Source: Haliotis cracherodii
Lineage: Eukaryota
Direction of reading: 5' to 3'
Assembly: GCF_022045235.1 (NCBI RefSeq)
Contig: NW_027266268.1
Span: 6,138,001 to 6,202,000, forward strand
Length of the DNA stretch: 64,000 nt
Shown here one piece after another: positions 6,961 through 54,167 of the stretch. Both the position numbers and the translations under genes were made by a program. The notes beneath the pieces were generated by a model. It made no database searches, was not told where the DNA came from, and saw only the letters and a program-made list of their open reading frames with translations. How positions within the stretch are numbered: position 1 is the stretch's first letter; every line of letters starts with the position of its first letter.

Positions 6961-9900
6961 ATGGCGAAACGGGTTGCGATCATTGGAGCCGGGTGTAGCG
7001 GTCTCACTGCCATTAAATGTTGTGTAGACGAAAAGCTGGAACCGTTTTGTTTTGAGCGAACTGACGAGCTCGGGGGATTATGGAATTTTACGGAAAAAGT
7101 CCGCGAGGATCAGGGATGCGTGATGAAGTCGACTGTCATCAACACCAGCAAGGAGATGATGTGTTACAGCGACTTTCCTATACCTAAAGAGTACCCCAAT
7201 TTCATGCATAACACGCAGGTAAACGTACTTTTTATGTCACATGGGCCGATGTTTGTGTACATGGAATGGGCTCATTCGTGACCAACTCGTGTTATTCCGG
7301 GACAAGCCTTGCAGGTTACGAATGGGAATTTCTTCAATCTATGGAGGGGCGGTGGGGTAGCCTTGTGATTAAAGCGTTCACTCGTCACGCTGAAGACCCG
7401 GGTTCGATTCCCCACATGGGTACAATGTGTGAAGCTCATTCTGGTGTCCCCAGACGCAATCTTGCTAGAATATTGCTAAAAGCGTCGTGGAACCATACTC
7501 ACTCACTCAATCTATGGAAATCACTTTGCAATGCTCTATGACTTGATGTGCATTTGACAATATAGCACACCAACACAGTATCTGAAGCCAAGGAACATGT
7601 ATGGGTGAGGCATAAGTGAGACTTCTTGAGATCTGACATGGAATATATAGAGTAGACAAACTACGTCTTCGTAATGCTCCCACTATACCACAGCACACAT
7701 CTGCGCCTCTGTGTGTGTGTCCGTGTGTGTGTGTGTGTGTGTGTGGTTCAAAAACAACATACATAAATATTATATACTCAACAACAAAAGTTCCTGTGAC
7801 ACCAATATTTTAGTGTATTTTTCAAACAAGTAAAGTTAGGTTTTCAATATTGTAGTACATGTATGGAATCAAATCACAAAAACGCTACAGAAAAGCATGC
7901 ATTCCATGCAAAAGTGAACTTTTATGCAAACCCATGCATTTCACTACGCAAGGATGGGTATAAAAACATGCGTTAACGGGATTCCATATGCATTGTTTAG
8001 CATCATGCCTTTTTGTGATTGACGATATGGAGATCGACCTTTTAGGGTGACCCAGTCGTCTAAGGCGCCGCGATTCGCTGTGCAGAGTTGAGTCCCTTGT
8101 GCACCCTAGAAACCTATTTGGTTCGAATCCCGGTTCTTATATTTCCAGATTTGTCAGCACAATACCCGTGCTCGTGGGTTTCATCGAAGTGGTAAACGTC
8201 TGAGACCTGCATCACCTCGGGCTTTCCTCCCACATTAAGCTGACCACCGCGATATGACTGGAATACTGTTAAAAGCGGCGTTAAACCCAACTCACTCACT
8301 CACTCACTCACTCACTCACTCACAACGCCAAGCGTTATCTCACTTGATGATGACTCAGCTTATTTTGAGACCCACATAACGATCTATTTATAACGTACCT
8401 ACATCGCAAACGGGCACGACCTCGAGGCGGCTGACGGGATCTGGTGGACAGGCTCGCTGACATGGCTGATGCATTTTATCATGCATAATCCTGGTACAAT
8501 AGATTTCAATACAAGATTTATTTCTCACGATCCGCCTGCCCCGTCACCACATTTCGTCTCCGGACAGACTCACTCTCCACTAGACCGCTTTTAATTTTGA
8601 AATGCGCAGCTGTGGTGACAATTTTCAAAATTTTATTTCTTACTTAATAAATACATTTTGAAAAGTTTTCTTTGTTGTAGAGAGACACATATAGAACACA
8701 TTACGGTAAAACGATTTTCAGTAGAAATGAACAAGTGGAGATTGTGAGTTTCAGTGCTAACGGACGGACTGACCCCTGGTGGAGCGACCGACCCCTGGGG
8801 ACTGACTGTCACCTGGTGAAGGGACTGACCACTGGTGGACGGACTGCCCCTGGCGGACGTACTGACCCCTTGGGACGGGCTGACCACTGGCGGAGGGACT
8901 GACCCCTGGCGGAGGGACTGACCATTGACGGACGGACTGACCCCTGGCGGAGGGACTGACCTCTGGCGGACAGACTGACCCCTGGCGGAGGGACTGGTCC
9001 CTGGCGGAGGGACTGACCCCTGGCGGAGGGACTGACCACTGGCGGAGGGACTGATCCCAGGTGGAGGGACTGACATCTGGCGGACGGACTGACCCCTGGC
9101 GGAGGGACTGACCCGTGGCGGAAGGACTGACCACTGACGGACGGACTGATCACTGGCGGACGTACTGACCCCTTGGGACGGACTGACTTCTGGCGGAGGA
9201 ACTGACCACTGGCGGACGGACTGACCCCTGGCGGAGGGACCGACCACTGACGGAGGGACTGACCAGTGGCGGAGGGACTGACCACTTACGGACGGACTGA
9301 CCACTGACGGATGGACTGACCACTGGCGGAGGGACTGACCCCAGGCGGACGGACTGACCACTGACGGACGGGCTGACCCCTGGCGGACGGGTTGACCACT
9401 GACGGACGGGCTGACCCCTGGCGGAGGGACTGACCACTGACGAACGGACCGATCACTGGCGGACGGGTTGACCCCTGGCGGACGGACTGACTACTGACGG
9501 ACGGGCTGACCCCTGGCAGACGGGCTGACCACTGACGGACGGGCTGACCCCTGGCGGACAGACTGAACCCTGGCGGGCGGACTGACCTGGGACACCCATA
9601 CCATAAGCATTCATTCATGATATCGAAGACGAAGATGTTTATTTTCTCATGAATCACGGTGGTAACATAAATAAATTGACAAGCAGAACATGTCTACACA
9701 GTAATGTGACAACAGTGAGTGGAGCAAGCACAGTCCACATTTAACAGAGCTAATCGTAAGAGAAGAGGTTTATAAGAGCATGCCATAAGTGACATAATGT
9801 TTTTCGGGACTAACTGAACTTTTATTTCCACTCAGGTGGCTATTAGCGGTATCAGAGGTACACAATCTTTTCAACAAATAGAGTGAGTGAGTGAGTGTGT

Positions 9901-12269
9901 TGGGTTTAACGCCGCTTTTAACAGTATTCCCGTTATATCACGGCGTGTCAGCTTAATGTAGGAGGAAAGCTCGAAGTGATGCAGGTCTCTGACGTTTACC
10001 ACTTCGGTGAAACCCACGAGCACGAGTATGGTGCTGACAAACCTAGAAACATAATTGTGGCGAACCGGGATTCGAACCAACAATCATAGGTTTCTGACGT
10101 GCCCAGCGGACGCAACTCTGCACAGCGAATCGCTGGAATACTGCTAAATGCGGCGTTAAGCCCAACTCACTCACTCACTCACTCACTCACTCACTCACTC
10201 ACTACATGTGCACATAGAACTCCGATGACTTCCCGAGTCAAGGGATACGAGAGTTGGAATCTGATTGGTCAGTCGGATGGATGTAAAAGGGACATGACTC
10301 GTAATAGGCGTTTGTGGGCACGAAATTCCAGCCTCTTTCGACAAGGGTAGAAACTTGACTTTTAAAGTTAGTTAAATCCTCTGCCCCGGGAAGATGCACA
10401 AGTATAAATAGCAGAGGGTGTTCACAACTTTTCGAGTCTGGTACAAAACAATTATTTGACTTGAAAACGCCGGGGGGGGGGGGGGGGGGGGGGGAGGGGG
10501 GGGGGGGGGGGGTGTGTGTGTGTGTAAAAGTGGGATTATACGTCGCGTCAAGATTATTTGACTTAGAGACCCACACTCGTGTGTGTGTCTTTCTACCTGT
10601 ACCATATCTGAGCTCACGCAATGCAATAGGTTTGTGTGTAAAAGAAGTTATCATAAGAATTGCAGTTCATTTTGTAACAAACCAAAACAAAACCTAAAAC
10701 TCTATTCAGGTGTTCGACGGGACGTCATGACTAGATTATAGCTAAACGCGTCGTAAAACAATAATCACTCACTCACTCATAATCAAGAGTACACGTCTGT
10801 CAAGCATCTCCTCACTTGATGATGACTCAGCATATTCTGCGACCTACATAACTATCTACTGATAATGCAGTACAGTAAATGCAGTACTAACAAGACCGGT
10901 GGTCCCGCTGACTTGGTTGATGATTCTTACAGTTTCGTATATCGATGCTCATTGTGCTTGATTATTTACAGACCGCCGTCACATTGCCGGAATATTACTG
11001 ATTGCGGCGTTAAACATCAAACAAAACATACCATATATTTCATATATATTTTCAAGATTTCTGTCTCCAGGTATGGCAGTACTTCAAGATGTACGCAGAT
11101 GCCTTCAGTCTGAGCAAACACATCCAATACAACAAAGAGATCCTGTCTGTGAAGAAATCACGTGACTACGAGCAGACCGGAAGATGGGATCTGCAGGTCA
11201 GAGATCACAAGACCGGAAGTGAGGAGACGCAGGTGTTTGATGCGGTGATGGTGTGCACCGGTCATCACGCCAGCAAGAACATGCCGGACTTTACAGGTCA
11301 AGATGACTTCCAGGGGAAGATCCTTCACTCTCAGGACTACAAGGACTGGACCGGGTACACTGGGAAGAGGGTGGTGGTTGTCGGGGTCGGCAACTCAGGC
11401 GGGGACGCAGCTGTGGAGCTGAGCAGGGTGGGGCAGGTGAGAGATGACCTGAAAGGCCTAGCCTCTATTTGGCATTATTTTGTAAGATGGGACTTTGTTC
11501 ATTGCGTGTTATTGTTATCACTGGATTTTTTGGTCCAGATATTTATTCAATATAGTGTTGTCTCCATAATATCAGAAGGTATTGTTAATAAATATTGGAT
11601 CATACAAATGAGTTTCTACAATGCATGAAGACTAGATTCTTGTTTCTCCAGGTGTTTCTTAGCACGAGGCGAGGTACCTGGGTGATCAACAGAATTGCTG
11701 ACAATGGTATCCCTGCCGATTTTCAACTAACAACACGTTTTACCAATAAGATTCGACACTCCTTGTCCCAAAAAACACTGAGTGGTATACTTCAGAAACA
11801 GCTCAATAAACGTTTCGATCACGAGCTGTACTCCTTGAAGCCGAAACACTCGGTGTTCGCCCAACATCCTACAGTAAACGATGACATGCCCAATAGAATC
11901 GCGACTGGCCTTTTGAAGATTAAGGCTGACATTAAGAGGTTTACCAAGACTGGCGTGGAGTTTGTTGACGGGACGGTGGAAGATAACATAGACGTTGTCA
12001 TACTGGCTACAGGTTATGTATTCGGCTTCCCGTTTATTGACAAGTCTGTGATCGATGTTCAGAAGAATAAGGTCAAGATGTTCAAGTATATGTTTCCACC
12101 TGATTTGCCGAAACAGACATTGGTGGTGATTGGTTGTTTTCAACCTCTCGGCGCCATTATGCCTATTGCGGAATTACAGTGTCGCCTAGCAACCAGAGTA
12201 TTCAATGTAAGCAATTTTCTTTTCTTGGTTATTTGTTGGGAACATTAGAGAGAGACACTCACACACAGA

Positions 12270-12350
<81 letters not shown>

Positions 12351-13732
12351 CCTTTTACCTCAAAATGGGAACAGAACTTTGAACATCCGTTGTGTGTGTG
12401 TATTCCATGGTATTCCATATGTCTTGCTCTCTGTCCTCCAGGGCACCTGCAGTCTCCCGTCAAAGTACGAGATGTGGGCAGACATTGGGAAGAAGGAGGC
12501 AGCCATGGCGGCGAGATATGTCGAATCCCAGCGACACACGATCCAGGTTGACTATGTCGACTTCATGGACGAACTGGCGGAACTTGTAGGATGCCGACCA
12601 GCTACAGGTGAAGACTAGGTTATCTCCCCTTAAAACGTTAGAATTTATAACACCCAGTTTTGTTTCTTCGCTGATGAACTCCGAGATCAGCAATATTCAA
12701 GGGCTTTGAGAGCAACTATAAGTGAGGACTTGGTTATACACCCTTTGAACAACACCTTCCTCAATTGTTATATGTAACTGATTGAGTTAGTAAATGAGTA
12801 TGTTTTTTGCGCCGCCTGTTGCAATATTCAAGCAATATAAGGGCAGGGGACACCAGAAATCACTTCACATTTTGTACCCATGTGGATAATCGAACCCATG
12901 CCTTTGGCGTGCCAAGCGGACGCTTTAACCATGACAATACCCCATCGCCCCTAAAATGTAGGTAATATATTGGGGAGTACTGTTATTTCCCCTTAGTACC
13001 ATACCTTGCCTTGGTTGTTGTGGAAAGCTAGTTTGGGACCATCTTCCATTGTGCTGTTCCTGACCTTACCTGACCTCACCTGACCTCACCTGACCTTACC
13101 TGTCCATTTCGCGCTAATCGCCCATCGTTGATTTACGCGGAGATCAGCAATACCCATGCCTTTAAATTATTGAATCTGATCTGCAAACCGGTGATTGACA
13201 TCATGAGCATCAATCCACGCAATTGGGAAACGATGACCTCCAGTCATCCAAGTCACCGAGCCTTCCCATCGGGTACATTTAGTCGCCTTATGAAACATAT
13301 ATTGGAAGTTACAGCTGAATTTGCCTAGTAAGAGAGAATACAATTTTAATGATCCATTCCATAACCCTGTGTAGAGACACAAAACGTAAGTTCCTGGTCC
13401 GCTTTTTAATCTGACCACTATGAAATAATGTTGCCTCTCTTAATTCTGTTCAAGGTCATCTTCTGTTGACCGATCCGAAACTTGGACTCAAGTGCTACTT
13501 CGGACCAACCACCCCCTACCAATACCGCCTGAGGGGGCCGGGCACGTGGTCGGGGGCCCGGGAGGCTATCATGACCCAGACAGATAGAATGGAGTACCCC
13601 TTTAATACCAGACCCCTCCCTGAAGGTACAGAGACACAGTCGTCCCACAGACTCCTCACACTGGTGTTGCTGGTGCTGGTCATTGCCGTCCTTTACAAAC
13701 TGTTTTTTAAAAGCGATGTGACGAGTTTGTAG
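6961..13732 (+). CDS. FMO5: Flavin-containing monooxygenase (FMO5-like), copy A; join(6961..7218,11071..11436,11652..12206,12442..12607,13455..13732), 540 aa
   Basis: FAD GAGCSG; FMO fingerprint [11 protein letters not shown]; NADPH GVGNSG; ATGY motif; C-terminal TM helix. All four introns GT-AG and the joined frame is open. The symbol denotes family-level similarity, not proven orthology. Confidence 0.95.
7346..7506 (+). mobile_element. tRNA-derived SINE family 1 (~165 bp, (ACTC)n tail)
   Basis: A box TAGCCTTGTGAT, B box GGTTCGATTCC; 12-bp TSD TCAATCTATGGA at 7334 and 7507. Confidence 0.85.
8044..8322 (+). mobile_element. tRNA-derived SINE family 2 (~280 bp, widely spaced A/B boxes)
   Basis: CCCAGTCGTCTAAGGCG head, GGTTCGAATCC B box, (ACTC)n tail. 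Confidence 0.8.
8758..9588. repeat. GC-rich ~19-23-bp tandem repeat (CCCTGGCGGAGGGACTGAC variants) in FMO-A intron 1
   Basis: Direct inspection. Confidence 0.9.
10822..10836 (+). promoter_or_regulatory. Candidate antioxidant response element (ATGACTCAGCATATT)
   Basis: Matches RTGACnnnGCA with an AT-rich flank; homologues at 8350 (A) and 17662 (B). Confidence 0.45.
12276..12347. repeat. (GA)n microsatellite
   Basis: Direct inspection. Confidence 0.95.
13061..13100. repeat. (TGACCTYACC)x4 array = AGGTCA DR4 half-sites on the minus strand
   Basis: TGACCT at 13061, 13071, 13081 and 13091. Confidence 0.85.
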
Positions 13733-15905: not shown

Positions 15906-18442
15906 ATGGCGAAGCGGGTGGCGATCATCGGGGCTGGGTGTAGCGGTCTCACTGCCATCAAATGTTGTGTTGACGAAAAGCTGGAGCCGTTTTGTTTTGA
16001 GCGAACTGACGAGCTCGGGGGATTATGGAACTTTACGGAAAAAGTCCGCGAGGATCAGGGGTGCGTGATGAAGTCGACTGTCATCAACACCAGCAAGGAG
16101 ATGATGTGTTACAGCGACTTTCCTATACCTAAAGAGTTCCCCAATTTCATGCACAACACGCAGGTAACCGTAGTTCATGTGGTCAATTAAGTGTTTGTTC
16201 ACATCGATTGGGGCCCTATAAGGGTTGCATATTTTATTTAAAATGTATTCATGGTAAAATCATCTCTACGACAGGTGACACTGATATTAATGTGAGGAAA
16301 ACAAAATTAATAAGATAACGAAAGCGCCAATCATCTGTTGGCTTCCTTTGTTAGCTTGTACCCTTTGTTATTTTCCACCTTTTATTATCTTATTAATTTT
16401 GTTGTCTTTACATGTACATATATAGACTCTTTGCCTCATGTCATTCATTCATCTGATGAAGGAGTAAGCATATACTCCGAAAACGTTGTGTTCCTCATAA
16501 TAAAGAAGTGAAGTTGACATCCATATATTCTCTTCCTTGTGTGCTTTACTGTTACCTTTTTATACAAACATGGCTTAGAAGTCAACAAAACAAAATGATG
16601 ATAATCATTGCGGTATCTGTAGGAATTTTGTTAGAAATAAAAATTTAAAACATTTTTTTTGTGTGTATGGGGTTTTTTTGCAGTGTGGATTGGGGCATAT
16701 TTTCTATAACAATTTTGATATGTATTAAAAGCAATACAGGCCACCCGAGGTATAGCAAAGGATGGTTCCATATGTATATGTTCACTGCAGCATCAACCAA
16801 CATTTTTGATTCCCTGTCAGAGCTCCTTTCCCTAAAAGCATACCAGAAACGTATGGTCGAGGGTTCGAGCCTGGTTCATATTGTTTGAGCACAATGCCCG
16901 TCCTTTCACCAAAACGGTGAACAGTTAAGACTTGCATCGCTTTCGGCTTTCCTCCCACACCAACCTGACACACCCTGATATCTCTAAAATACTGTTTAAT
17001 CGGAGATAATCACGATTCGCTCACTAACTCGCTACACTTTTCCTCTGTCACGTCTAGGGGCACGGGTGGCCCAGTCGTCTAAGGCGCCGCGATTAGCTTG
17101 GTTCGATGATTGTGGGTTCGAATCCCGGTTCGCCCGAATTATGTTTCTAGGTTTGTCAGCACCATACCCGTGCTCGTGGGTTTCCCCAAAGTAGTAAACG
17201 TCTGAGACCTGTATCACTTCGGGCTTTCTTCCCACGTTAAGCTGATACGCCGCGATATAACGGGAATACTGTTAAAACCCAACTCACTCACTCGCTGCCA
17301 CGTCTTCTGATTAGGCGGGAAATGGGATCAGTAAGGATTAGGATAAGGGCGGAGAGGGAGATTCGGGGGCGCATGATATGTTGTAGTTCTCTTCTGTTCA
17401 TACTTACAGTAAAAGATATTTACATACATTAAGCAGATGTATGATGTAATCTCTCAGCAGTATGTGAGACACACAAATTCACTAAAACGTTATACTGCAT
17501 GTAAATGACCATACTGCACCTACCGTAGCTCTCTCTTTTCCAAACTTCTATATGCTATCTAGTGACCATCATGATCAAGATGGTGTATCCCGCCGTGATA
17601 TTGTTGGCATATTGCTGAACGTAAAACAATGCCTCACTCACTATAAGCATTATCTAACTTTATGACACAGCATTTTTTGCGACCCCAATAACGAGCTACT
17701 GATAACGCACTTTAGGACATGCGAACGAGTACGAGGCGACTAACGGGATCGAGTGGTAAGGCTCGCTGTCTTGGTTGATGCATGTCATTGTATCCCAGTT
17801 GCGAAGATCGATGCTCATGATGTCAATCACTAACATTGTTTGCTCTGATATATATGACACCAGTCCATTTGAATAAATTTTATAGAATAAAATGGGTTTT
17901 TCTCTACCAACCTTCCCAGTATTTCTAAGTGTTGAAGGTCGGGGTTCGATCCCCGGCCTCGTTATACCGAAACACGTTAAAAGATGGCACTTGTTGCTGC
18001 CCATCGCTCGTAGATAAAACAAGGACTGGTGGGCTCAGAGTCAGATTAACTGCCTGAGATGGGTATCATGTTAATGTGCGGCATGGTATCTCAGTGGACA
18101 CGCACTATAAAACCAACGTTTTTACATGTCCGGACCAGTACAAGCAGCCACACACATGTGTGTCTCTCTATTAGAGAAATAATCTTGAACGCGACGAAAT
18201 CCCTCTGTCAAGAAACGTCTTTTTCAAATCAATTGTTTTGTGCCAGAATCCACCATTTGTGCACATTCCCTGCCATTCATACTTGTATGTCATATACAGG
18301 TGAGGTGAAATGGGGTTTAACGTCGCGTCCAAGATTATTGCACGTGTGTGTGTGGCTGCTTGTACTAGTCCGGACTGATGCCTATTTATAGTGCTAGCTC
18401 ACTGAGATAGCATGCCGCAGTTTAACATGAATACCCTACTCA

Positions 18443-18483
<41 letters not shown>

Positions 18484-21400
18484 GCACGCACGCACGCACG
18501 CACGCGCGTGCGCACGACTCTACATATGCGCAATTTTTTTGAACGCTACGTTAAGCCCCACTTGAATCAAGTGGCAAAGTCAGATATAATACAGTGTAAT
18601 AGGTTTGTGTATAAGAGAAAAGTTATCTGGGAATTGTAGTTCAGTTTGCTACAAACTAAAACAAAACCTACAAAAAAAACGATTCAGGTGACCTCATGAC
18701 TCTATTGTAAACTTTTCTGACTCCAGGTTTGGCAGTACTTCAAGATGTACGCAGATGCCTTCAACCTGATCAAACACATCCAATACAACAAAGAGATCCT
18801 GTCCGTGAAGAAGTCACGTGACTACGAGCAGACCGGAAGATGGGATCTGCAGGTCAGAGATCACAAGACCGGAAGTGAGGAGACGCAGGTGTTTGATGCG
18901 GTGATGGTGTGCACCGGTCATCACGCCAGTAAGAACATGCCGGACTTTACAGGTCAAGATGACTTCCAGGGGAAGATCCTTCACTCTCAGGACTACAAGG
19001 ACTGGACCGGGTACACTGGGAAGAGGGTGATGGTTGTCGGGGTCGGCAACTCAGGCGGGGACGCAGCTGTGGAGCTGAGCAGGGTGGGGCAGGTGAGAGA
19101 TGACTTGAAAGGTCTAGCCTCTATTTGGCATTATTTTGTAAGATGGGACTTTGTTCATTGCGTGTCATTGTTATCACTGGATTTTTTGGTCCAGATATTT
19201 ATTCAATATAGTGTTGTCTCCAAAATATCAGAAGGTATTGTTAATAAATATTGAATCATACAAATGAGTTTCTACAATGCATGAAGACCAGATTCTTGTT
19301 TCCCCAGGTTTTTCTTAGCACGAGGCGCGGTACCTGGGTGTTCAACAGAATTGCTGACAATGGTATCCCTGCCGATTTCCAAATAGCATCACGTTTTTTA
19401 AGAAAGATTCTACACACCTTGCCCCAAGAAACACTGAGTGGTATACTTCAAAAACAACTAAATAAACGTTTCGACCACGAGCTGTACTCCTTGAAGCCGA
19501 AACACTCGGTGTTCGCCCAACATCCTACAGTAAACGATGACATGCCCAATAGAATCGCGACTGGCCTTTTGAAGATTAAGGCTGACATTAAGAGGTTTAC
19601 CAAGACTGGCGTGGAGTTTGTTGACGGGACGGTGGAAGATAATATAGACGTTGTCATACTGGCCACAGGGTATGTATTCGGCTTCCCGTTTATTGACAAG
19701 TCTGTGATCGATGTTCAGAAGAATAAGGTCAAGATGTTCAAGTATATGTTTCCACCTGATTTGCCGAAACAGACCTTGGTGGTGATTGGTTGTTTTCAAC
19801 CCATCGGCGCCATTATGCCTATTGTGGAATTGCAGTGTCGCCTAGCAACCAGAGTATTCAAAGTAAGAAAAAAATGTATTATTGGAAAAATGTTTATATG
19901 GGAAAATGCGTCACTCATAAATTATCTGGACAAACCTGATTTTTGTTCCGCATTGTAGTGTTTCATTGTTTAGAAAACTAAGACATTTGTAACATATGTT
20001 TGTACCTCAAAATGTATATCCGGGTTTCTTTATGATTGCGTATTCCATGATTGCGTATTCCATGGTATTCCATATGTCCTGTTCTCTGTCCACCAGGGCA
20101 CGTGCAGTCTCCCGTCAAAGTACGAGATGTGGGCGGACATTGGGAAGAAGGAGGCAGCCATGGCGGCGAAATATGTCGAGTCCCAGCGACACACAATCCA
20201 GGTGGACTACATCGACTTCATGGACGAACTGGCGGAACTTGTAGGATGTCGACCAGCTATAGGTGAGGACTGGGTTATCTCCCTTTAGAACCACAATTCA
20301 GTTGTTATATATGTAGCTGAGTAAGTATGGTATTTTTACGCCGCATTTAGCAATACTCCAGCAATATCTCGGCAGGGGGCACAAGAAAATTTGCTTCATA
20401 CATTGTACCTTTGTAAGGAATCAAACCCAAGTCGCCCCCCTCCATTATCTTATAAATAGGTTAGTGATGTTGTTTCTTCTTAGTACCACACCTTACCTGG
20501 GATGTAGGGTGAAGTAAGTAGGCGAGTTCAGGAGTAAAGCGCTCGGATCAAAATTAAAATAAAGAGGTATCTACTCTACAGTGGGACTACATACAATTTC
20601 AAAACACAGTAGGTTTATCTCCTAATTCTACGGTGAAATTGTTGAATGCTTGATTCTGATTGGTCAAAAAGAGGTTTCCTTTTTGCTACGGACACCGCCT
20701 TTAAATATATTAAGCCTTTTTACAAAAGACGTGCGTATGAATACATAGATAGCCTACATATCGATTCATAAAAAAACACCCCAATATGAACTGTAAAACT
20801 ATCTATATTTCCTCTAATACACGCTGGGTCTCTAATACCAGACAGGTATCTAATACACGCTGAGTCAAGGGCTCTCGCGAAATTAATAGACGGCATAGCG
20901 TCAAATAGAGGAAATACGGTGCTCGTGGTTTAATATCGGATGTTTTGGGCGCTCTATCCCGCAACCCTGAGTGTTTCGATGATGACGTTAAAATATTTAC
21001 GAAGGCATGTCTTTTGCATACAAAAGAAATGTTTATGAAACTATTAGGAAAATGTTCTATGGTGACCAGAATCGGAGCAATTTAAGCAATTTCCTCATTG
21101 AAACAACAATTAAATTAAAATAGAACATTATAAAAAATTGTTTGAAAAAACGTTATTCATAGCAACATGTTGTTCACAAACCTTCATGGGATTGAGTGAG
21201 TGAGTGAGTATGGTTTTACGCCGCTTTTAGCAATATTCCAGCAATATCACGGCGGGGGACACCAGAAATGGGCTTCACACATTGTACCCATGTCGGGAAT
21301 CGAACCCGGGTCTTCGGCGTGACAATCGAACGCTTTAACCACTAGGCTACCCGACCGCCCCTCATGGGATTGATATTCGTTGCCACCTCCGTCATGTTCT

Positions 21401-23370
21401 GGCAGAAGAAGATTTGAAAGTCCATCAGTCTGTCAGAAAACACTCGTCCATTCGAAAAGCCACGAAACCAATGTCCCGACATCATTGAAGTCAAACTTGA
21501 TAAAATCAATTTCAGAACACGCACAATTCAGAAAACCATACACGAACCACTATTTCTGGGCCACGAATGTCTCATTTTATTTACATTCTGGCTTGGAATC
21601 CATGAAATCTTGAAATTGACAGGTCACACCATGCAAATAGGCCCTACCTCGTGTCAAAATGTCCGGCTCGTCTGAAGGCTAAAATGCGTTAATGCTGAAC
21701 CACATCATAGATCGGGGTTGTCATCTTGCTTCATTTAACTAGTTACAGAGAATATAAACAAGATTGTCAGCCATTGACAGCTGCGAGGTGTGAGGAACCA
21801 TGATGTAGGTCAAGTTCTGCCACATCCCAGTTCGGGGTGGAGACATGTATTTTGATGTTATTATTGTTTACTGGGGGTAATTGCTAACTAACTAATAACA
21901 CTTACTCATGTTAAATGTATAATATAATGTTAATTCATTAAGTTTGTTGTAGAAATATATACGTTTAGCATTTTAAGACCCTTTTGTTCAACCTGTCACC
22001 CCTACGATGGAAATGGCATGTTCGATTTCCAAGAAATGACCTCTCTCCCATAAAAGACATCGCCAGTGCAGAACGGGGTGGTAGAAATTAACACATTTGT
22101 CTTTGGACATAGTTTTGAGTGTGTGTTTTTTTTTGTCAACTTCTTTTTTTTTTAAACTATGAGTTTTAAACACTTATTTTGAACTACTTAAGACTATGCT
22201 GTTTTTAAGCTTGAACTTGAGTAATAATTCTTACATATATAACTACCTGTGACCACTTCTCGGAATATTCTAAGATTGCGGACCTGCGTTACTGTGTTGT
22301 AACACGTTGCAAGAGAGCACCGTTTTCAAACCGTTGGTGCCGTCATGGTAGAATGGAGATAAACCTATCTACATGTACTCTACAGTGGGACAATATCAAA
22401 TTTTAAAACGCATAAGGTTTATCTCTTAATTGTGCCCGTGCCGTGTCGTGTCGTGCCGTGCCGTGCCTGACCTGACCTGACCTTAACAATTCATCTCGCG
22501 CTAATCGACCATCGCTGGAAGAAATCCACATTTGACACACATTCCTAGGATTCAAATGCCATGAATACGAAGATAAGGAATTATACCAACTAAAACAACT
22601 GACAGATTTGATTGTTTTGGATTTTGTTATTGTCGCATCATCATTATTCCTTCTATTTCACAGCAACCTTGAAATAACCGAGTCTGGACCAGACAAACCA
22701 TAAGGATCGATCCAGACCCGTGAAGATCCATGGTAGAATACGTCTTCAGCAACCCATGCTTGCCGTAAAAGGCGACCATGTTGTGGTAAGAGGCGACTAA
22801 CGGGATCGGGTGGTCAGGGTCGCTGATTTGATTGATGCATGTCATCGATCTCGCGTCGATCGATGCTCATGATATCAATCACTGGATTGTCTGATGCAGA
22901 TTTGATTATTTACAAACCGCCGTCATATAGCTGGAATATTGCTGAGTGTGGCGTTAAACAACAAACAATCCGACCACAATGAAATAATGTTTAAATTTAC
23001 TTTAATGACCTTGAATATGACCTTGTTAGTTGATGAGAGTTTCATTAGAAAGAACACTATCTCGGATTTCCATACATCCATCAATTCTATTCTAGGTCAT
23101 CTTCTATTGACCGACCCGAAGCTTGGACTCAAGTGCTACTTCGGTCCCGCAACCCCCTACCAATACCGCTTGAGGGGGCCGGGCACGTGGTCGGGGGCCC
23201 GGGAGGCCATCATGACCCAGACAGATAGAATGGAGTACCCCTTTAAGACCAGACCTCTCCCTGAAAGTACACAGAAACAGTCGTCCCACAGACTCCTCAC
23301 ACTGGTGTTGCTGGTGCTGGTCATTGCCGTCCTTTACCAACTTTTTAAAAGCGATGTGACGAGTTTGTAG
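15906..23370 (+). CDS. FMO5: FMO5-like copy B; join(15906..16163,18727..19092,19308..19862,20097..20262,23096..23370), 539 aa
   Basis: Same motifs and exon phases as copy A; GT-AG introns; open frame. Confidence 0.95.
16290..16545 (+). mobile_element. Penelope-like element terminal remnant with a hammerhead-like motif
   Basis: CTGATGA-A-GGAGTA...TACTCC-GAAAACGTT at 16453-16487, followed by AATAAA; short inverted repeat 16298-16318/16385-16403; absent from the other paralogues' intron 1. Confidence 0.5.
20572..22430. mobile_element. Non-autonomous element with a 13-bp TIR (TAGGTTTATCTCC) and a ~55-bp terminal direct repeat
   Basis: TIR 20610-20622/22355-22367; direct repeat 20572-20626/22376-22430; unique to FMO-B intron 4. 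Confidence 0.5.
21196..21361 (-). mobile_element. SINE family 1
   Basis: Near-consensus copy; TSD TCATGGGATTGA at 21184 and 21362. Confidence 0.9.
22716..22968 (+). mobile_element. SINE-like family 3
   Basis: Sequence match to the family. Confidence 0.8.
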
Positions 23371-36955: not shown

Positions 36956-37007
<52 letters not shown>

Positions 37008-38073: not shown

Positions 38074-38160
<87 letters not shown>

Positions 38161-41100: not shown

Positions 41101-43928
41101 TAAGAGCACGAAACCGTTTAAGAGCAACAGGTCTACGAGCAAGACGTCCTGTTCGAAGCGTCATATTGAGTCGACAACATCGTCAACATCGAATGCATCG
41201 GTGCGATGGAGAGGTGTCTGGTTTAGCCACGAATCAAGATTTCTCCTCCGTCGAGGGGATGGATGAGCACGGGTCTACAGACGTCGGGGAGAACGTTACG
41301 CCGGAAACTGCTTACAGGAAGTGGACAGGTTTGGTGGGGGCAGCGTTATGATGTGGGGGGATATTTGATTTGAACCCGATAGAGCACCTTTGGGATGAAT
41401 TGGATAGACGTCTTCGTCGACGTCAACCACAACCCCAGACGTTACAGCAGTTGGTTTTTGCAGGGCAAGTGGGCTACCATTCCCACTGAGATGACTACAA
41501 TCACCAAGTGTTCTCTCCAAAACATTTTGGCTCAGTACCTTGTACGGTTCCTCGTACAAATGTATACTGAACCGCAAAAAAACGTCACCCCAAGCAACAT
41601 TGCATGAAAAGTTAAATATCTGGGTACTTTTGGTCAAAGTTTCTAAATTTTAACATTTCCTTGACCGGAAAAATGAAATTTGAAAAAAATGAAAAACAAA
41701 GCAGATGACAATAAAACCGATCGCCCAAACGTATCACGGCAACGGCCATGGTAACCCGATACACGTGAGTTCCGTGCAAATTGAACATGCGCATGCGTTC
41801 CCCGAATTATTGCCCTATAAAAATCCACCTAAATCGGATAACATTCATTCGTTATTGAATTGCTACCACATGCCAAGATTGACAAGAAATCAGCGTCACC
41901 AAGCCCTTGGACGATTGCAAACTGGACAAACCACCCGGCAAGTAGCCAGTGCATTTCAAGTCCATGTAAGGACCATATACAGGCTCCAGCGACGGTACCA
42001 GACCACCAACACTACAGATGACCGACCAGTAGTGGAAGACCAAGGGTAACTACCCGACGTCAGGATCGTCAGATTGTGCGACAGCATCTTCAAGATCGAT
42101 TTGTTACTACTGCAGAAACTGCTCGACAGACCATGGGGACACACCAACGACACATTAGTGCGGACACTGTGCGTCGACGTTTGACGAGCAGACACCTCCA
42201 CTGTCACAGACCACACAGTGGACCCATTCTGACACCACGTCATCGCCGGGACCGTCTTCAGTGGGAAACACAGCACCAACATCTGTGCCACCAGCAGTGG
42301 AGAAGAGTCCTCTTCTCAGACGAGAGCCGTTACTGTATCTCAACAGCAGATGGCAGAGGGAGATTCTGACGACGCCGTGGGGAATGTTATTTGGATGTTT
42401 GTGTTGTTGAGAGAGAATCGTGGGGTGGTCCGAGCATCATGGTCTGGGGTGGAATCGGTCTTGCACAGAGGGTCGGCCCTGTGGTATGCCAGAGAGGCAA
42501 TAGTGTCACAGCAGCTCGGTACATTAATAAAGTCTTGAGTCCACACGTAATACCTCATTTGGCACGTCGCCGCAACCACGAGTTTCAGCATGTTAACACC
42601 CGTGCCCACACTGCGAGAGGAACAAGAGCCTTCCTCCAGCCGAATGGCATCAGAACCATGCAGTGGCCTGTCCTCAGTTTAAATCCCATTGAGCACCTGT
42701 GGGACGAGATTCAAAGACGGCTGAATGACGTCTGACCCAGGCCGACAACTGCAGCTGAATTGCGTCAGGCGTTCCTCAGAATGTGGGCTCAAGTGCCTAT
42801 GACCTTCATCAACCGCCTCATCCATTCCATGTCTCGACGTTGCACGGCAGTCATCAATGCACATGGCGGACACACGAGATACTGACTTTCTCAGAGATAA
42901 GTTTTGTGTTTCACTTTAACAACATTTGACACTTTAATTTCAACATTGATAATCAGTTTTGCCAAGTTTCATCTTTTTAATATGTCTCAAAGTATGTTTA
43001 CAGTGTTTAAGGTTTCTCATATATCTATCCATGGTGATGTTTGTTTTGCGGCTCAGTATATTTCCTACCTCAGATAAATCTGGCTTTGCGTTGTTTTTAT
43101 ATATAAGAGTATATATCGGGGAGTACTGTTCTTCGCCTTACTACCATACCTTGTTGTGTAAAGCTAGCTTTGGGACTATCTCCCATTGTGCCGTTCCTTA
43201 CCTGACCTTACCTGACCTCACCTGACCTCACTTAAACTCACGTGACCTTAACTGACCTCACCTGACCTCATGTGACCTTACCTGACCTTAACTGACCTCA
43301 CCTGACCTCACCTGACCTAACCTGACCTTACCTGACTACCTGTCCGTCGCCCATATGATACACTTTCTTGCTTATTCGTTGATTAACACCCAGATCCTTT
43401 AAATGATCCAGTGTGACCAGGCAATCCAGTGATCATGAGAATCGATCCATGCAGTTGGGAAACGATGGCATACAATCATGACACATACTCGTATATTGGA
43501 ATTTACGTCTATACCTGAATGTGACTTTTAAGAAATGTTACTTTCGTTCTGAAACAATCTTAATGAGCTCTTCTATTGCTTGAACTGTTAGAGACACAGA
43601 ACGTACGTTCCTGGTCCGCTTTTTAATCTGACCACAATGAAATATTGTTGCTACTCCTAATTCTGTTCAAGGTCATCTACTGTTGATCGATCCGAAACTT
43701 GGACTCAAGTGCTACTTCGGCCCAACCACCCCCTACCAATACCGCCTGAGGGGGCCGGGAACGTGGTCAGGGGCCCGGGAGGCCATAATGACCCAGACAG
43801 ATAGAGTGGAGTACGCCTTTAAGACCAGACCTCTCCCTGAAGGTACAGAGACACAGTCGTCCTACAGACTCCTCACACTGGTGTTGGTGGTGCTGGTCAT
43901 TGCCGTCCTTTACCAACTGTTCTTTTAA
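33474..43928 (+). CDS. FMO5: FMO5-like copy C; join(33474..33731,36565..36930,37137..37691,37868..38033,43672..43928), 533 aa
   Basis: Same motifs (fingerprint [11 protein letters not shown]); GT-AG introns; open frame. An N gap lies inside intron 1. Confidence 0.93.
34140..34203 (-). mobile_element. Short Penelope-type reverse transcriptase fragment
   Basis: [17 protein letters not shown] motif. Confidence 0.5.
34236..34510 (+). mobile_element. SINE family 2
   Basis: Full length; TSD TCACTC(T/A)GAATCT at 34223 and 34511. Confidence 0.85.
35237..35488. other. Assembly gap (N run) in FMO-C intron 1
   Basis: Run of n. Confidence 1.
36955..37007. repeat. (GCAC)n microsatellite
   Basis: Direct inspection. 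Confidence 0.95.
38074..38160. repeat. (TAGA)n microsatellite
   Basis: Direct inspection. Confidence 0.95.
38280..39900 (-). mobile_element. Decayed non-LTR retrotransposon (LINE) fragments
   Basis: [16 protein letters not shown] motif (~38900-38860) and C-terminal [10 protein letters not shown]...RICNQC...[10 protein letters not shown] zinc-knuckle-like region. Confidence 0.7.
40050..40322 (+). mobile_element. SINE-like family 3
   Basis: Sequence match; short TSD ACGTCACC. Confidence 0.8.
40945..41460 (+). mobile_element. Highly decayed Tc1-like transposase fragment
   Basis: [24 protein letters not shown] and [11 protein letters not shown] remnants. Confidence 0.7.
41565..43058 (+). mobile_element. 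Near-full-length Tc1/mariner transposon with an inactivated transposase (41870..42885)
   Basis: ~26-bp imperfect TIRs (TACTGA(A/G)CCGCAAAA...TCACC); TA TSD; TATA at ~41816; FSDES, QHVN (catalytic D lost) and LNPIEHLW; one frameshift and two stops. Confidence 0.9.
43201..43336. repeat. Expanded 10-bp (CCTGACCTYA)n array with 12 perfect TGACCT half-sites in DR4 phase
   Basis: Counted directly. Confidence 0.9.
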
Positions 43929-49063: not shown

Positions 49064-52000
49064 ATGGCGAAACGGGTGGCGATCATTGGAGCCGGGTGTA
49101 GCGGTCTCACTGCCATCAAATGTTGTGTTGACGAAAAGCTGGAGCCGTTTTGTTTTGAGCGAACTGACGAGCTCGGGGGATTATGGAACTTTACGGAAAA
49201 AGTCCGCGAGGATCAGGGATGCGTGATGAAGTCGACTGTCATCAACACCAGCAAAGAGATGATGTGTTTCAGCGACTTTCCTATACCCAAAGAGTACCCC
49301 AATTTCATGCACAACACACAGGTAAACGCATTGCTTGGATCAAAATGACCGTTCGTGTTTGTTCACATCGAATGGGGCCTAGTATGGGTTTCATTTTGTA
49401 TTGAATTTATATTCAAGGTAAAATGATCCCTTCCACAGATAACACTTTTAATGTGATTATTTATGATCAGCTGAATATTATGCAGCTTGTCATATAAGTT
49501 TGTCTATCCCAATTTGAGTCAAAACGGATTAACATATTGCCTGAGTGCGGGCTAGTGAGTGAGTAAGTATGGTTTTACGCCGCTTTTAGCAATATTCCAG
49601 CAATATCACGGCGGGGGACAGCAGAAATGGGCTTCACACATTGTAACCATGTCGGGAATCGAACCCCGGTGTTCGGCGTGACGAGCGAACGTTTTAACCA
49701 CTTGGCTACCCGACCGCCCCTCTAACAATCAGTACGAGGGAGCTTTGTATTTTATATTGATTTCTCAGTGGCATCTCTTGGTCCAGCCTCTGTTGCCATT
49801 TTTTACCAGCATGGCATGCAAGTCAACAAAAACGATAACACCGTTATGGTATCGCTCTAAAATTTGGGGGTATTTTCAAGTACAAACATATATTTATCAT
49901 CTAAATAGTATATTTATTAAGGAAAATGCAGGCCACCCCAAGAGTATCAAATGGATGGTCCCATGTTTGTCTTGTCTGGTCCAATCTGGATTAATTTCAG
50001 ATCAGTGTGGTACAGCTTGGATGCTGTTCTATGCGGCATCTACCAACATTCACTCACTTTTGTGAATGGGATTCCCTGTCGGGGTTACTTCCCTTATGCG
50101 TGACATATATGTATGTGTGCGGGTTCGAATTCCAGGTTCTAGGTTTGGAACACCATACCAGTGCTCGCGGGAATCACCCAAATGGTAAACGTCTGAGACC
50201 TGAAGTACGTCATTCTGCTATATGGTATTGCATACGGATGAACGTCATTCAGCTATATGGTACTGCATACGGATGAACGTCACATTTGTACACTTTGTTA
50301 TCTCATGAGTCCAGGTCAAACGAAAAATTACACTGCTTTATCAAGACAGAAACAGGCGGCGACATCAACAGTACAGAACTCGACCTATTTTCATTTAATT
50401 TGTCATATGTTGGGCGATGGGGTAGCCTTGTGGTTAAAGCGTTTGCTCATCACGCCGGCGAGTGATGGGGAAAATGTGTGAAGTCCCATTTCGGCCGTGA
50501 TATTGCTGAAATGTGCTTAAAGCGGCCTAATTGGCGAACTCACTCACTCACTCACTCATTTGTCAAATTTTGGAGTATCTATCATAGTTCAAACAATCAG
50601 TAGGTTTGTGTGTGTAGGAGGAGTTATCTCAAGAATTTTGTTACAAAACTGCCAAAAACAATTTTTATAAACTATACAGGTCATCAGCAGGACCTCATAA
50701 ACGTAAAAGAGAAGTTATCGTAAGAATTGCAGTTCAATATGTTACAAACCAAACCAAAAGCTAAAGAAAAACTATTCAGGTGACCTCATGACTCTATTGT
50801 AAAGTTTTCTGACTCAAGGTATGGCAGTACTTCAAGATGTACGCAGATGCCTTCAACCTGAGCAAACACATCCAATACAACAAAGAGATCCTGTCTGTGA
50901 AGAAATCACGTGACTACGAGCAGACCGGAAGGTGGGATCTGCAGGTCAGAGATCACAGGACCGGAAGTGAGGAGACGCAGGTGTTTGACGCGGTGATGGT
51001 GTGCACCGGCCATCACGCCAGCAAGAACGTGCCGGACTTTACAGGCCAAGATGACTTCCAGGGGGAGATCCTTCACTCTCACGACTACAAGGACTGGACC
51101 GGGTACACTGGGAAGAGGGTGGTGGTTGTCGGGGTCGGCAATTCAGGCGGGGACGCAGCTGTGGAGCTGAGCAGGGTGGGGCAGGTGAGAGATGATGACC
51201 TTTTATTTGGCTTTATTTAGTCCTGGATTCACGTTTTATGTCAACATGGCGGATAGGGGTGGCACACAGGAACTCGATATTGCTCTATGTAAAAATATAC
51301 GCCCCCTATACTCCATAAAAGACTTTAGGGGGGCGTTTATTTTTACAAAGAGCAATATCGAGTTCCTGTGATCTTTTGAGTGGTACATCCTGTGTTTACT
51401 TTGGAAACGATTTCAATTCAAGCTGATTCGGGATATTTAGATGAGTGGATCACGTCCCCAGTGTACCATGCTTGTACCATTATTGCCAGTCTCAGACGCC
51501 ATTGTCTTCATGCTGCGGTGACATGGCTGGAATATTGCTAACTGAGCGCAAAGACCATTCACTTGTCATCATTCTATGGGCGACCCCTTGGGGATTCGGG
51601 GTTAGAAGTGGTCCCCAGAAATATATGCTGGTAGTAGGGGCGACTTATTGGTCTGTCTGGGTGACACGGAGCTTGCGTGTCATAATACCCAGACGGCGTG
51701 GATCGTTGCTCACAATATTAATCACTGGATTGCCTGGTCCAGACTCGATTATTTACTGGCCGCCGTCATATAGCTGGGATATTGCTGAGGGCGGCGTTAA
51801 AAAACAAACAGACACATACACATACAAACACTTGGTTGTATAACGTTCTGTAAAAGGCCACATGACCAGGAATAAATAGGCCAATCTGTACGGGTCCCTA
51901 GCCATGGGCCGCTCTTTGGGATTGCGTTTTCACTTCCATAAATGAGTTTCTACGACACATGAAGACCAGATTCTTGTGTCCACAGGTGTTTCTGAGCACG

Positions 52001-54167
52001 AGGCGCGGTACCTGGGTGCTCAACAGAATTTCGGACAATGGCATCCCCGTAGACTTTCTACGATCAACACGTTTCATCAATAAGATTCGACACACTTTGT
52101 CCCGGGATACTCTCAGCAGCATCGCTCAGAAACAGCTCAACAAACGTTTCGACCACGCGTTATACTCTTTGAAGCCTAAACACTCGGTGCTTGCCCAACA
52201 TCCAACTGTAAACGATGACCTGCCCAATCGAATCGCGACTGGCCGATTGAAGGTAAAAGCGGACATCAAGAGGTTTACCAAGACTGGCGTGGAGTTTGTT
52301 GACGGGACGGTGGAAGATAACATTGACGTTGTCATACTGGCTACAGGGTATATATTCGGCTTCCCGTTTATTGACAAGTCTGTGATCGATGTTCAGAAGA
52401 ATAAGGTCAAGATGTTCAAGTATATGTTTCCACCTGACTTGCCGAAACAGACATTGGTGGTGATTGGTTGTTTTCAACCTCTCGGCGCCATTATGCCCAT
52501 TACGGAATTGCAGTGTCGCCTAGCAACCAGAGTATTCAAAGTAAGAAGTTTTCTTTTTTCTGGTTAATTTTTGGGAAAATGTTTATATCGGAAAATATGA
52601 GACACTTAAATTATCTGCACAATCCGATTCTCGGAATATTAAACGTCTGTTTAAACAGTGTCCCAATATTTTAGTGTTTTGTGTTAGCAAGAACATTTGC
52701 TCTATGTTCCTTGTACCTCATGTGTATTCCATGGTATTCCATATGTCTTGTTCTCTGTCCACCAGGGCACCTGCAGTCTCCCGTCAAAGTACGAGATGTG
52801 GGCGGACATTGGGAAGAAGGAGGCGGCCATGGCGGCGAGATATGTCGAGTCCCAGCGACACACAATCCAGGTCGACTACGTCGACTTCATGGACGAACTT
52901 GCGGAACTTGTAGGATGTCGACCAGCTATAGGTGAGGACTGGGTTATCTGGGTTAGAACCACACCAACCGAAATTGTTATATATAGTTGTGTGAGTGAGT
53001 GGGTATTTTTTTAACACCGCTTTCAGCAATATCATAGCCACGAAATGGCTATTTCCAATCCTTTGTGTGTAGCTAATATGTAGACGAGTGTTATTTGCCC
53101 TCAGGTTGGGTGTTGGGTAAACTGGTAAGTAGGGGAGTTGAGGATTATCCCTCATAATCCCGTGCCTTTCCTTTCCTGACCTTACCGACCGCCTCCGTGG
53201 TCTAGTGGTAGAGCGTCCGCCCGGAGAGCGGAAGGTTCAGGATTCGATCCCCGGCCGCGTCATACCAAAAGACGTTAAAAGAGGGTACTTGTTATTACCC
53301 TATCTGGCGCTCGGCATTAAGGGGCTAAAACAAGGACTGGTCGGCTCGGAAACAGTATACTGTGTCTGAGTGGGGTATTCATGTTAAACTGTGGCATTGT
53401 ATCTCAGTGAGCTAGCACTATAAATCGGCATCAGTCCGGACTAGTACAAGCAGCCACACAAACACACACGTACATGCACGTCGCTATATAAGTGCAATAA
53501 TCTTGGACGCGACGTTAAACCCCCCTTTCACCTCACCTCGCCTTACCCTACCTCCCTGTCCACTTCGTCCCAATCGATCATCGTAGGAAGGCATCCATAT
53601 GCCACACATTCGTAGATTAACGCCGCAATCAGAAATACTCGAGCTGTTTGATAGTAGCCTATACATAATCGAGTCTGACAGACAAACCAGTGATTGGTAT
53701 CATGAGCATCGACCCGTACAGTTGAGAAACGATGACACGCAATCATCAAAGTCAGCTGAATTTGACTGGTAAGAAATTATACTTTGGTCCTAAAACAATT
53801 TTACTGATCGGTTCCATTACCCCGGATAGAGACACAGAACGTAGGTTCCTGGTCCGCATTTTTAATCTGACCACAGTGAAATATTGTTGCTACTCTTCTT
53901 TCTGTTCAAGGTCATCTTCTATTGACCGATCTGAAACTTGGACTCCAGTGCTACTTCGGCCCAACCACCCCCTACCAATACCGCCTGAGGGGGCCGGGCA
54001 CGTGGTCGGGGGCCCGGGAGGCTATCATGACCCAGACAGATAGAATGGAGTACCCCTTTAAGACCAGACCCCTCCCTGAAGGTGCACAGACACAGTCGTC
54101 CCACAGACTCCTCAAACAGGTGTTACTGGTGCTGGTCATTGCCGTCCTTTACCAACTGTTCTTTTAA
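49064..54167 (+). CDS. FMO5: FMO5-like copy D; join(49064..49321,50819..51184,51986..52540,52766..52931,53911..54167), 533 aa
   Basis: Same motifs; GT-AG introns (exon-2 acceptor is AAG); open frame. Confidence 0.93.
49555..49720 (-). mobile_element. SINE family 1
   Basis: Sequence match to the family. Confidence 0.85.
51265..51370. mobile_element. 106-bp foldback (MITE-like) in FMO-D intron 2
   Basis: ~43-bp near-perfect inverted arms CACAGGAACTCGATATTGCTC.../...GAGCAATATCGAGTTCCTGTG. Confidence 0.7.
51582..51810 (+). mobile_element. Diverged SINE-like family 3 copy
   Basis: Conserved 3' half; head carries compensatory stem changes. Confidence 0.7.
53187..53539 (+). mobile_element. tRNA-derived SINE family 4 (central domain resembles MetaSINE; (TCACC)n tail)
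   Basis: A box TGGTCTAGTGG, B-box-like GATTCGATCCC, body GTCATACCAAAAGACGTTAAAA...CTGGCGCTCGGCATTAAGGG. The superfamily resemblance is from memory and unverified. Partial copies at about 17930-18210(+), 18298-18410(-) and 55524-55614. Confidence 0.75.

Follow-up and report, generated by a model that had tools for sequence, protein, structure and literature searches.

Paralogs under gene conversion can retain short peaks of divergence, as set out in the Teshima-Innan model and described for the human red/green opsins and Drosophila CG18281/CG17637 (PMC3924837, PMC2588116). Read at the level of sequence, the array of flavin-containing monooxygenase (FMO) genes described here is a case of this known pattern. 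As in those peaks, the flanks sort by lineage and a short stretch of coding sequence sorts by paralog, and the profile between recent orthologs is flat for copies B, C and D. It departs from them in having five segment types, not two, and in the location of the homogenised sequence, which is the coding core instead of the introns; conversion also seems to be mostly past. Opsin exon 5 holds proven functional sites, whereas the role of the abalone segment is predicted.

The array resembles the membrane-bound clade I FMOs (AncFMO5, 6sek, and tAncFMO1-5, the bifunctional ancestor in tetrapods) in predicted fold, at 56-57% identity. The fingerprint, Asn61, Ile60/His274/His425 and the C-terminal helix are shared. 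The gatekeeper Leu374 of clade I FMOs is found in three of the four array copies (copy B has Ile), and Met55 stands where PMC10682829 gives a conserved Tyr56. Multiplicity of FMOs in gastropods is ordinary, as are the genes themselves; Pomacea canaliculata, compared by gene count alone, has 15 FMOs and is multi-copy like abalone (PMC6129957). H. cracherodii records named 'flavin-containing monooxygenase 5-like' in RefSeq hold the same proteins letter for letter, in an annotation that carries neither history nor function. No paper on this array was found in the literature searched, which lay outside subscription journals and supplements.

Gene content and age of the copies

The window (the whole 64-kb stretch of H. 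cracherodii DNA that was analysed) contains four intact five-exon FMO genes in tandem at 6961-54167, all on the + strand. Copy A lies at 6961..13732 (exons 6961-7218, 11071-11436, 11652-12206, 12442-12607 and 13455-13732; 540 aa) and copy B at 15906..23370 (exons 15906-16163, 18727-19092, 19308-19862, 20097-20262 and 23096-23370; 539 aa). Copy C spans 33474..43928 (exons 33474-33731, 36565-36930, 37137-37691, 37868-38033 and 43672-43928; 533 aa), and copy D, for which there is a spliced D-like contig, spans 49064..54167 (exons 49064-49321, 50819-51184, 51986-52540, 52766-52931 and 53911-54167; 533 aa). The H. cracherodii RefSeq proteins identical to A-D are XP_071097178.1, XP_071097179.1, XP_071096332.1 and XP_071097181.1, respectively. 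Exon sizes in the four copies were 258/366/555/166/257-278 bp, the reading was uninterrupted and all 16 introns were GT..AG. Pairwise identity was 91.9-95.0% in amino acids and 92.7-95.4% in nucleotides. The original prediction of four intact five-exon FMOs agrees with gene structure, introns, Pfam and RefSeq identity alike. The pseudo-copy that it also listed is present as a relic of exon 1 (25415..25675, + strand) with frameshifts and stops, 82-84% identical to each copy; remnants of exons 2-5 were sought in the window and none was found. Intron 1 of copy C is interrupted by an assembly gap of 252 N (35237-35488), and intron 4 of the same copy holds broken pieces of a Tc1/mariner transposase (42022..42735, + strand; PF01498, E 4e-12; DDE_3 below cut-off).

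Among A-D, dS was 0.148-0.245 and mean dN/dS was 0.17. Intron lengths differed up to ~7-fold, introns that could be aligned were mostly 76-85% identical (5 of 12 intron-2/3 pairs did not align), and upstream regions were 75-85% identical in those pairs, four of six, that could be aligned well. The reading as a genuine tandem array, subject to purifying selection, is supported. H. rufescens carries B-, C- and D-type partners that differ by 1-2 aa over codons 219-258; these matching types and the RefSeq identity show that A-D are not assembly duplicates. Uncollapsed haplotypes or assembly duplicates, the refutation named in advance, are the least probable of the explanations considered: the scaffold gap inside copy C would suit them, but dS, intron lengths and insertions, and the H. 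rufescens types all speak against them. In about 1/100 of each of two WGS runs, over 19.9 kb without copies C and D, depth was near zero in unique sequence and repeats were dominant.

The description of the copies as nearly identical is overstated in view of dS, intron lengths and intron identity. A young array is contradicted by dS and by segment types that are older than the split of black (H. cracherodii) and red (H. rufescens) abalone, those of D and E being found also in H. rubra and/or H. asinina. A caution attaches to the high identity, which gave the array its young look. Absolute dating was attempted with a measured germline rate of 8.6e-9 per generation (6 years) and an East-West split at 36.4 Ma (one preprint), and was abandoned: at that rate a dS of 0.15-0.25 corresponds to ~50-85 Myr, older than the split. 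Since the two clocks disagree, only minimum ages were used.

Enzyme class and predicted substrate access

The dinucleotide motif of class B FMOs is GxGxxG. Two such motifs (9-14, 191-196) were present in all four proteins, together with the FMO fingerprint (166-177), FxGxxxHxxx(Y/F)(K/R) (PMC10682829). All four matched Pfam FMO-like PF00743 over residues 2-530 with 698-705 bits (cut-off 22, E ~1e-210). The AF2 model had a pLDDT of 92, and its best fold match was AncFMO5 6sek (TM 0.92/0.98, rmsd 1.0). It contains the ~80-residue insertion in the NADPH domain, with a helical triad, that is a feature of class B clade I. Helices were predicted at 230-234, 237-245 and 248-262, and a C-terminal helix at 512-533, the mean hydropathy of the tail helix being 1.9-2.5. 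The divergence peak described below falls on the three predicted helices, which in the model match the membrane/tunnel triad known from solved FMO structures.

Each of A-D carries Ile60, His274 and His425, as do 21/21 Haliotis array rows; the corresponding triad I60/H275/H426 confers Baeyer-Villiger activity on ancestral tetrapod FMOs (PMC9950137). With these residues shared, the chemistry is probably common to all copies, and substrate access may differ among them. Second-sphere residues matter for ketone oxidation, and the conserved active-site rim comprises, in AncFMO5 numbering, Tyr56, Ser196, Asp199, Arg224 and Asn195 (PMC10682829). Four of these five are kept in the array, with Tyr56 replaced by Met55 in 21/21 Haliotis rows and in 62/87 other homologues. 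By analogy with solved and assayed relatives, each enzyme would be anchored in the membrane by its C-terminal helix, bind FAD and NADPH, and generate a C4a-(hydro)peroxyflavin. Lipophilic S/N compounds, and probably also ketones (Baeyer-Villiger), would enter by a tunnel within the helical triad and be oxidised.

Identity of the array was 56.9% to tAncFMO1-5, 56.0% to tAncFMO5 and 55.2% to tAncFMO1-4. The FMO1-4/FMO5 split lies within tetrapods and tAncFMO1-5 predates the first tetrapod FMO duplication (PMC9950137), so the array was not filed as FMO5. According to the same source, Baeyer-Villiger activity has yet to be established in other taxa, and the array copies could show whether it reaches invertebrate clade I FMOs.

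A coding segment that groups by copy type

Of 65 variable amino acid sites among A-D, 19 lie in 230-258, a count reached in 0/5000 shuffles; the stretch 499-533, made up of linker and TM tail, holds another 10. The expected concentration in the predicted substrate-entry segment and the membrane-anchor tail was thereby confirmed, while the tunnel-gate region had only three variable sites (374, 380 and 381). Codons 230-258 correspond to 11715..11801 in copy A, 19371..19457 in copy B and 37200..37286 in copy C (all + strand). Copies A and B differ at 13 positions in the best 60 bp, with the remainder of the 1168 bp ungapped block ~97% identical (95.7% over the whole block; 0/20000 shuffles). This spike covers codons 232-249, and 10 of the 13 differences are at first or second codon positions. 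At sites of equal lability, 17/23 vary among A-D inside the segment and 17/97 outside (p 4e-7). The segment is also labile in general, with an entropy rank of 13 among 503 windows in 87 non-Haliotis homologues. Over 230-258 among A-C, dN/dS was ~1.0 and not significantly higher than the neutral expectation (p 0.13, with the synonymous rate of the whole gene as reference), so positive selection is not shown.

In copy D an old tract covers codons 219-300 (52016..52261, + strand). Its dS against A, B and C reached 0.55-1.24 over codons 219-258 and 0.68-0.79 over 259-300; further along this exon, in codons 301-393, it dropped to 0.09-0.15. Third-position changes private to D fell in these 82 of 532 codons in 19 of 26 cases (0/20000 shuffles equal); no such synonymous excess was seen in A, B and C, with 1/13, 3/20 and 2/15 of their private third-position changes there. 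GC3 was 0.46-0.55 inside 219-300 and 0.61-0.65 outside (Fisher p 0.002-0.08, the copies not being independent), which is the pattern expected if the flanks underwent GC-biased conversion. A Sawyer-type longest-tract test was clearly significant in one of six pairs (A-B, codons 266-302, p 0.0004), the others giving p 0.019-0.73. Part of this A-B signal arises from the changes private to D in the same region.

Trees were built from 18 proteins of H. cracherodii, H. rufescens, H. rubra and H. asinina, all multi-copy, using protein sequence only (82 columns for the segment). The last three species have 5-7 related array-type RefSeq records each, isoforms included, and H. cracherodii has six copies, A-D and two of type E, which lie on a scaffold equal in length (41.9 Mb) to that of the window. 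Outside codons 219-300 all six H. cracherodii copies formed one clade (100/99). Inside, D grouped with one H. rubra and two H. asinina copies (94/97 and 100/98) and E with one H. asinina copy (100/100). AU tests rejected the grouping of the opposite partition (p 0.030/0.016, 0.0019/3e-5 and 0.027/0.020), values that are optimistic because D and E were defined as groups only once the first tree had been seen. In five overlapping East-West quartets, 25/33 type-grouping sites were in 219-300 compared with 6/83 species-grouping sites; one of the five was non-significant (p 0.061). The D/E quartet had 11 type-grouping sites in the segment. No clear West Pacific partner was found for the A and B types. 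Two of the three AU tests gave p of only 0.016-0.030.

Between black and red orthologs of B, C and D the profile was flat, with 4/120 segment sites (3.3%) and 49/1350 others (3.6%) differing, compared with ~39% in the segment and 5.5% elsewhere between paralogs. The A and E pairs were less flat (7/40 and 4/40 segment sites), and in deep same-type pairs the segment evolved ~2x faster (D, 6-7/40 against 39-45/450; E, 12/40 against 55/449). Black/red quartets had 0-2 species-grouping and 22-35 type-grouping sites, which indicates little protein-level homogenisation since the black/red split. Reshuffling of black/red orthologs outside the segment was considered and is ruled out by the same 0-2 sites per quartet. 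The H. rufescens RefSeq isoforms appear to fuse exons from different copies.

Explanations for the mosaic

The mosaic history, in which codons ~219-300 group by copy type and the rest by lineage, is held with high confidence. We lean, less firmly, towards a fuller reading in which gene conversion made the catalytic core uniform, leaving 219-300 aside, while selection likely preserved copy-specific forms of the predicted membrane and substrate-entrance helices. Most of the homogenisation would date from the time between the East/West Pacific split and the black/red split, and the copies would perform the same chemistry on different admitted substrates. The less secure part of this reading is selection on substrate access. 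Its main competitor, possible though doubtful, accepts the mosaic and makes it neutral: a weakly constrained surface segment drifted fast, its divergence mechanically blocked conversion, and near-redundant copies were kept for dosage or expression pattern. The lability of the segment in homologues, the dN/dS of ~1 among A-C and the invariant active-site residues of A-D fit neutrality, and accumulated substitutions and indels are known to end conversion (PMC3924837). Drift does not readily account for segments of B, C and D that are near-frozen between black and red abalone, for labile sites elsewhere that vary far less, or for an A-B spike made mostly of first- and second-position changes.

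Two further histories were considered. The segment types could be old balanced alleles of one locus that recombined freely with their flanks and were later captured by tandem duplications, which also predicts an old segment in younger flanks; we consider this quite unlikely, as D and E would have to be captured in parallel in East and West Pacific lineages and multi-copy sets occur in all four sampled species. Lineage-specific duplication, with no conversion, followed by convergent amino acid changes in the segment draws on the cross-species evidence being protein only, over 82 columns. It leaves the synonymous excess in D's segment and the 11 type-grouping sites of the D/E quartet unexplained and is very unlikely.

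A young array diversifying in specificity and inducibility, with TMA, hypotaurine or algal metabolites as putative substrates, was the model first put forward. The copies are intact, their differences are clustered, their upstream regions differ, and FMOs have been linked to taurine synthesis (PMC9950137). Against it stand dS, types common to several species, and active-site residues of the Baeyer-Villiger-competent ancestral type. Candidate xenobiotic-response elements were likewise not enriched: XRE-like cores (GCGTG, both strands) in the 2 kb upstream of A, B, C and D numbered 3, 5, 1 and 3, with ~2.9 expected from the window average, and no XRE/ARE enrichment was seen in these regions. The abstract of PMC9137885 reports that invertebrate AhRs have no identified ligand. 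We regard this model as unlikely; its real array and clustered differences stand, its youth is contradicted, its diversified inducibility and its TMA or hypotaurine substrates find no support, and it missed the main feature, the mosaic with its conversion history.

Returning to conversion with selected entrance helices, a more specific form can be put forward tentatively. The array may be a modular detoxification kit, with one catalytic chassis repeatedly homogenised by conversion and at least five interchangeable entrance modules of ~30-80 residues, those of D and E kept for >36 million years because each lets in its own class of lipophilic substrate, algal or endogenous. If so, the array would amount to a domain-swap experiment done by nature, one that bears on how FMO specificity depends on the helical triad. 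Outer tunnel segments, and not the inner active site, have been proposed to set FMO substrate preference (PMC7948450, PMC10682829). With copies 92-95% identical, a shared active site and a differing segment, a small panel of these natural variants and their chimeras could test that proposal.

Array, relatives and age

Four tandem FMO genes of five exons each were placed on the forward strand by self-comparison and exon mapping: A (6961-13732, 540 aa), B (15906-23370, 539 aa), C (33474-43928, 533 aa) and D (49064-54167, 533 aa). All 16 introns are GT..AG, the Pfam FMO-like family covers the entire length of each of the four proteins, and pairwise amino acid identity is 91.9-95.0%. Intron 1 of C contains a 252-N gap. 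The predicted pseudo-copy was found as a degenerate fifth unit, but it consists of exon 1 alone, frameshifted (25415-25675, 82-84% identity to A-D); BLASTN and TBLASTN within the window gave no other FMO exon relic.

Homologues were searched with exon 3 as query, taking the best 120 of 571 matches, and 7 clusters were then looked up. The window genes are already annotated in RefSeq, A-D showing 0 differences each from H. cracherodii XP_071097178.1, XP_071097179.1, XP_071096332.1 and XP_071097181.1. Two additional H. cracherodii proteins, encoded outside the window on a scaffold equal in length to the window's own, form a fifth type, E. Among the matches listed, related sets comprised 7 records in H. 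rufescens (including several isoforms), 5 in H. rubra and 7 in H. asinina; as a control, one more distant FMO record was taken from each of the four species. Assembly duplication of A-D was ruled out because B, C and D each have a counterpart of their type in H. rufescens, 1, 2 and 1 aa away, respectively, across residues 219-258. H. rufescens RefSeq 'isoforms' X1-X3 carry exon-3 types B, B and A-like (P0008/P0131/P0133) or C, D and D (P0125/P0129/P0126); exons from neighbouring copies thus appear to have been combined in the annotation, whether by mis-mapped reads or by genuine read-through splicing. H. rubra XP_046562090.1 (P0143) has Cys for His at active-site position 280, unique among the Haliotis array proteins.

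The array had been called young. This does not hold: dS between copies is 0.148-0.245 (mean pairwise dN/dS 0.17), alignable introns are mostly 76-85% identical (A-B intron 2, at 96.7%, is the exception), and the copy types are older than the Eastern Pacific abalone common ancestor, dated to 4.3 Ma (bioRxiv 10.1101/2024.09.16.613283). Minimum ages alone were used, since direct conversion of dS to years conflicts with the published dates of 4.3 Ma and, for the East-West Pacific split, 36.4 Ma (same source). FMO multiplicity itself is ordinary, as Pomacea has 15 FMOs (PMC6129957).

A divergent segment and its history

Differences among A-D had been described as concentrated in the putative substrate-entry segment, the tunnel gate, the tail and candidate xenobiotic-response elements. 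Residues 230-258 hold 19 of the 65 variable amino acid sites (0/5000 shuffles as high) and the tail holds ten, within the family's most variable part, but the gate loop has only three, including Leu374 to Ile in B. The 230-258 region is labile across FMOs (entropy window rank 13/503, 87 non-Haliotis rows); when sites of equal lability are compared, however, 17/23 vary among A-D within that region vs 17/97 outside. C and D end at residue 533 and A and B are longer by 6-7 residues; the extra tail sequence persists beyond the stop codon in C and D (tail/stop regions: A 13709-13732, B 23353-23370, C 43926-43950, D 54165-54189).

Against A, B and C, D has a dS of 0.55-1.24 (codons 219-258) and 0.68-0.79 (codons 259-300), dropping to 0.09-0.15 in codons 301-393 of the same exon. 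Codons 219-300, called the segment below, carry 19 of 26 D-private third-position changes (0/20000 shuffles at window widths of 40 and 82, picked with the data already seen); no such excess was found in the segment for A, B or C. An ungapped A-B alignment of 1168 bp has 50 differences, 13 of them in codons 232-249, where 10 fall at first or second positions. The lowest-GC3 82-codon window begins at codon 219-221 in A, B and C, and D differs; this is weakly consistent with GC-biased conversion sparing the segment.

Segment and remaining protein gave discordant trees in an initial set of 29 rows. Trees were repeated with 18 proteins; the rows removed were 4 outgroups, 5 H. cracherodii records showing no difference from window genes, and 7 records from H. 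rufescens that may be chimeric isoforms. All six H. cracherodii copies fall into a single clade (100/99) over the rest of the protein (450 columns). In the segment (82 columns), D groups with H. rubra XP_046562091.1 and H. asinina XP_067662259.1 and XP_067662265.1 (94/97; 100/98 under a mixture model), and E with H. asinina XP_067662263.1 (100/100). AU tests rejected a monophyletic H. cracherodii set for the segment (p 0.030, 0.016) and, in the rest, the D clade (p 0.0019, 3e-5) and the E clade (p 0.027, 0.020), values that are optimistic because the groups were named after the first 29-row tree. Across five overlapping East-West quartets, the segment has 25/33 sites uniting the same copy type across species and 6/83 uniting copies within species (Fisher p 1e-4 to 0.061). 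In four black/red (H. cracherodii/H. rufescens) quartets, type-grouping sites prevail throughout (22-35 vs 0-2), which places homogenisation mostly before 4.3 Ma; the D and E segments are older than the East-West split.

Probable conversion, possible selection

A mosaic history, in which gene conversion gave segment and flanks different pasts, is considered highly probable; a divergence peak under gene conversion is a known pattern, and that of the A-D array is the same. Whether selection completes the account was weighed on sequence comparisons. Between black and red abalone, B, C and D together differ at 4/120 segment sites vs 49/1350 elsewhere; the corresponding figures between paralogs are about 39% and 5.5%. 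These near-static segments argue for selection, and the profile resembles the flat-ortholog control of PMC2588116. Against selection count the black/red A and E pairs (7/40 and 4/40 segment sites), deep same-type pairs in which the segment evolves about twice as fast as the rest, and a dN/dS of about 1.0 among A-C (p 0.13). Conversion patterns can also mimic positive selection (PMC3924837). We lean slightly towards the full selective explanation. Searches of the openly available literature gave no paper on this array.

Predicted structure, expression and other features

An AlphaFold2 model built from a 112-row alignment (pLDDT 92) has predicted helices at 230-234, 237-245, 248-262 and 512-533, and its closest fold is AncFMO5 (6sek; TM 0.92/0.98, rmsd 1.0). 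For FMOs, an 80-residue insertion, membrane-embedding helical triads and a tunnel running through the triad have been described, and the outer tunnel segments are suggested to modulate substrate preference (PMC7948450). Fold match and alignment suggest that the variable helices 230-262 are this triad. The gatekeeper is Leu375 (PMC10682829). Baeyer-Villiger activity is restored by I60, H275 and H426 jointly, and tAncFMO1-5 performs both chemistries (PMC9950137); aligned to the ancestors, A-D have Ile60, His274 and His425, with 56.9% identity to tAncFMO1-5. A-D would share a probably bifunctional chemistry, with copy-specific access. In sequence and fold they match the clade I membrane FMOs, whose way of working they would share; an assignment as FMO5 orthologues is not warranted. 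No evidence singles out TMA or hypotaurine, which were among the substrates originally suggested. A Tyr56 is reported to be conserved in FMOs (PMC10682829), whereas all the Haliotis copies have Met at the corresponding residue 55 (A: 7123-7125), as do 62/87 non-Haliotis homologues.

Expression was checked in contigs from two runs guessed to be RNA. One 603-nt contig has exon 1 fused to exon 2 without the intron and agrees with D at 9 of 10 listed letter differences, two of them D-specific; a D-like copy is therefore spliced in at least one of these presumed RNA runs. Two further pieces were present, neither showing a splice: one from exon 3 resembles A (3 differences, where the other copies are 20-49 from A) and one resembles B (1 difference; other copies 19-48). 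In a run X7 contig (depth 16), codon 274 of A (11847-11849) differs by two letters and reads Pro in place of His274, a member of the Baeyer-Villiger trio; this could reflect an allele or an error.

A Tc1/mariner remnant lies in intron 4 of C (about 40950-42735), with a PF01498 match at 42022-42366 (E 4e-12) and a piece at 40950-41351 that resembles such a remnant by appearance. On the reverse strand, an open frame of 350 codons (125-1177), unrelated to FMOs, has only sub-threshold coiled-coil Pfam matches, and a short frame (5492-5767) with a sub-threshold DUF3504 match (E 9e-6) is probably a mobile-element relic. Self-comparison of the window also revealed long minisatellite arrays (1822-3996, 8757-9593, 44726-46454, 61276-62057 and 62571-63998), with numerous SINE-like repeats, 160-280 bp long, scattered through introns and spacers.
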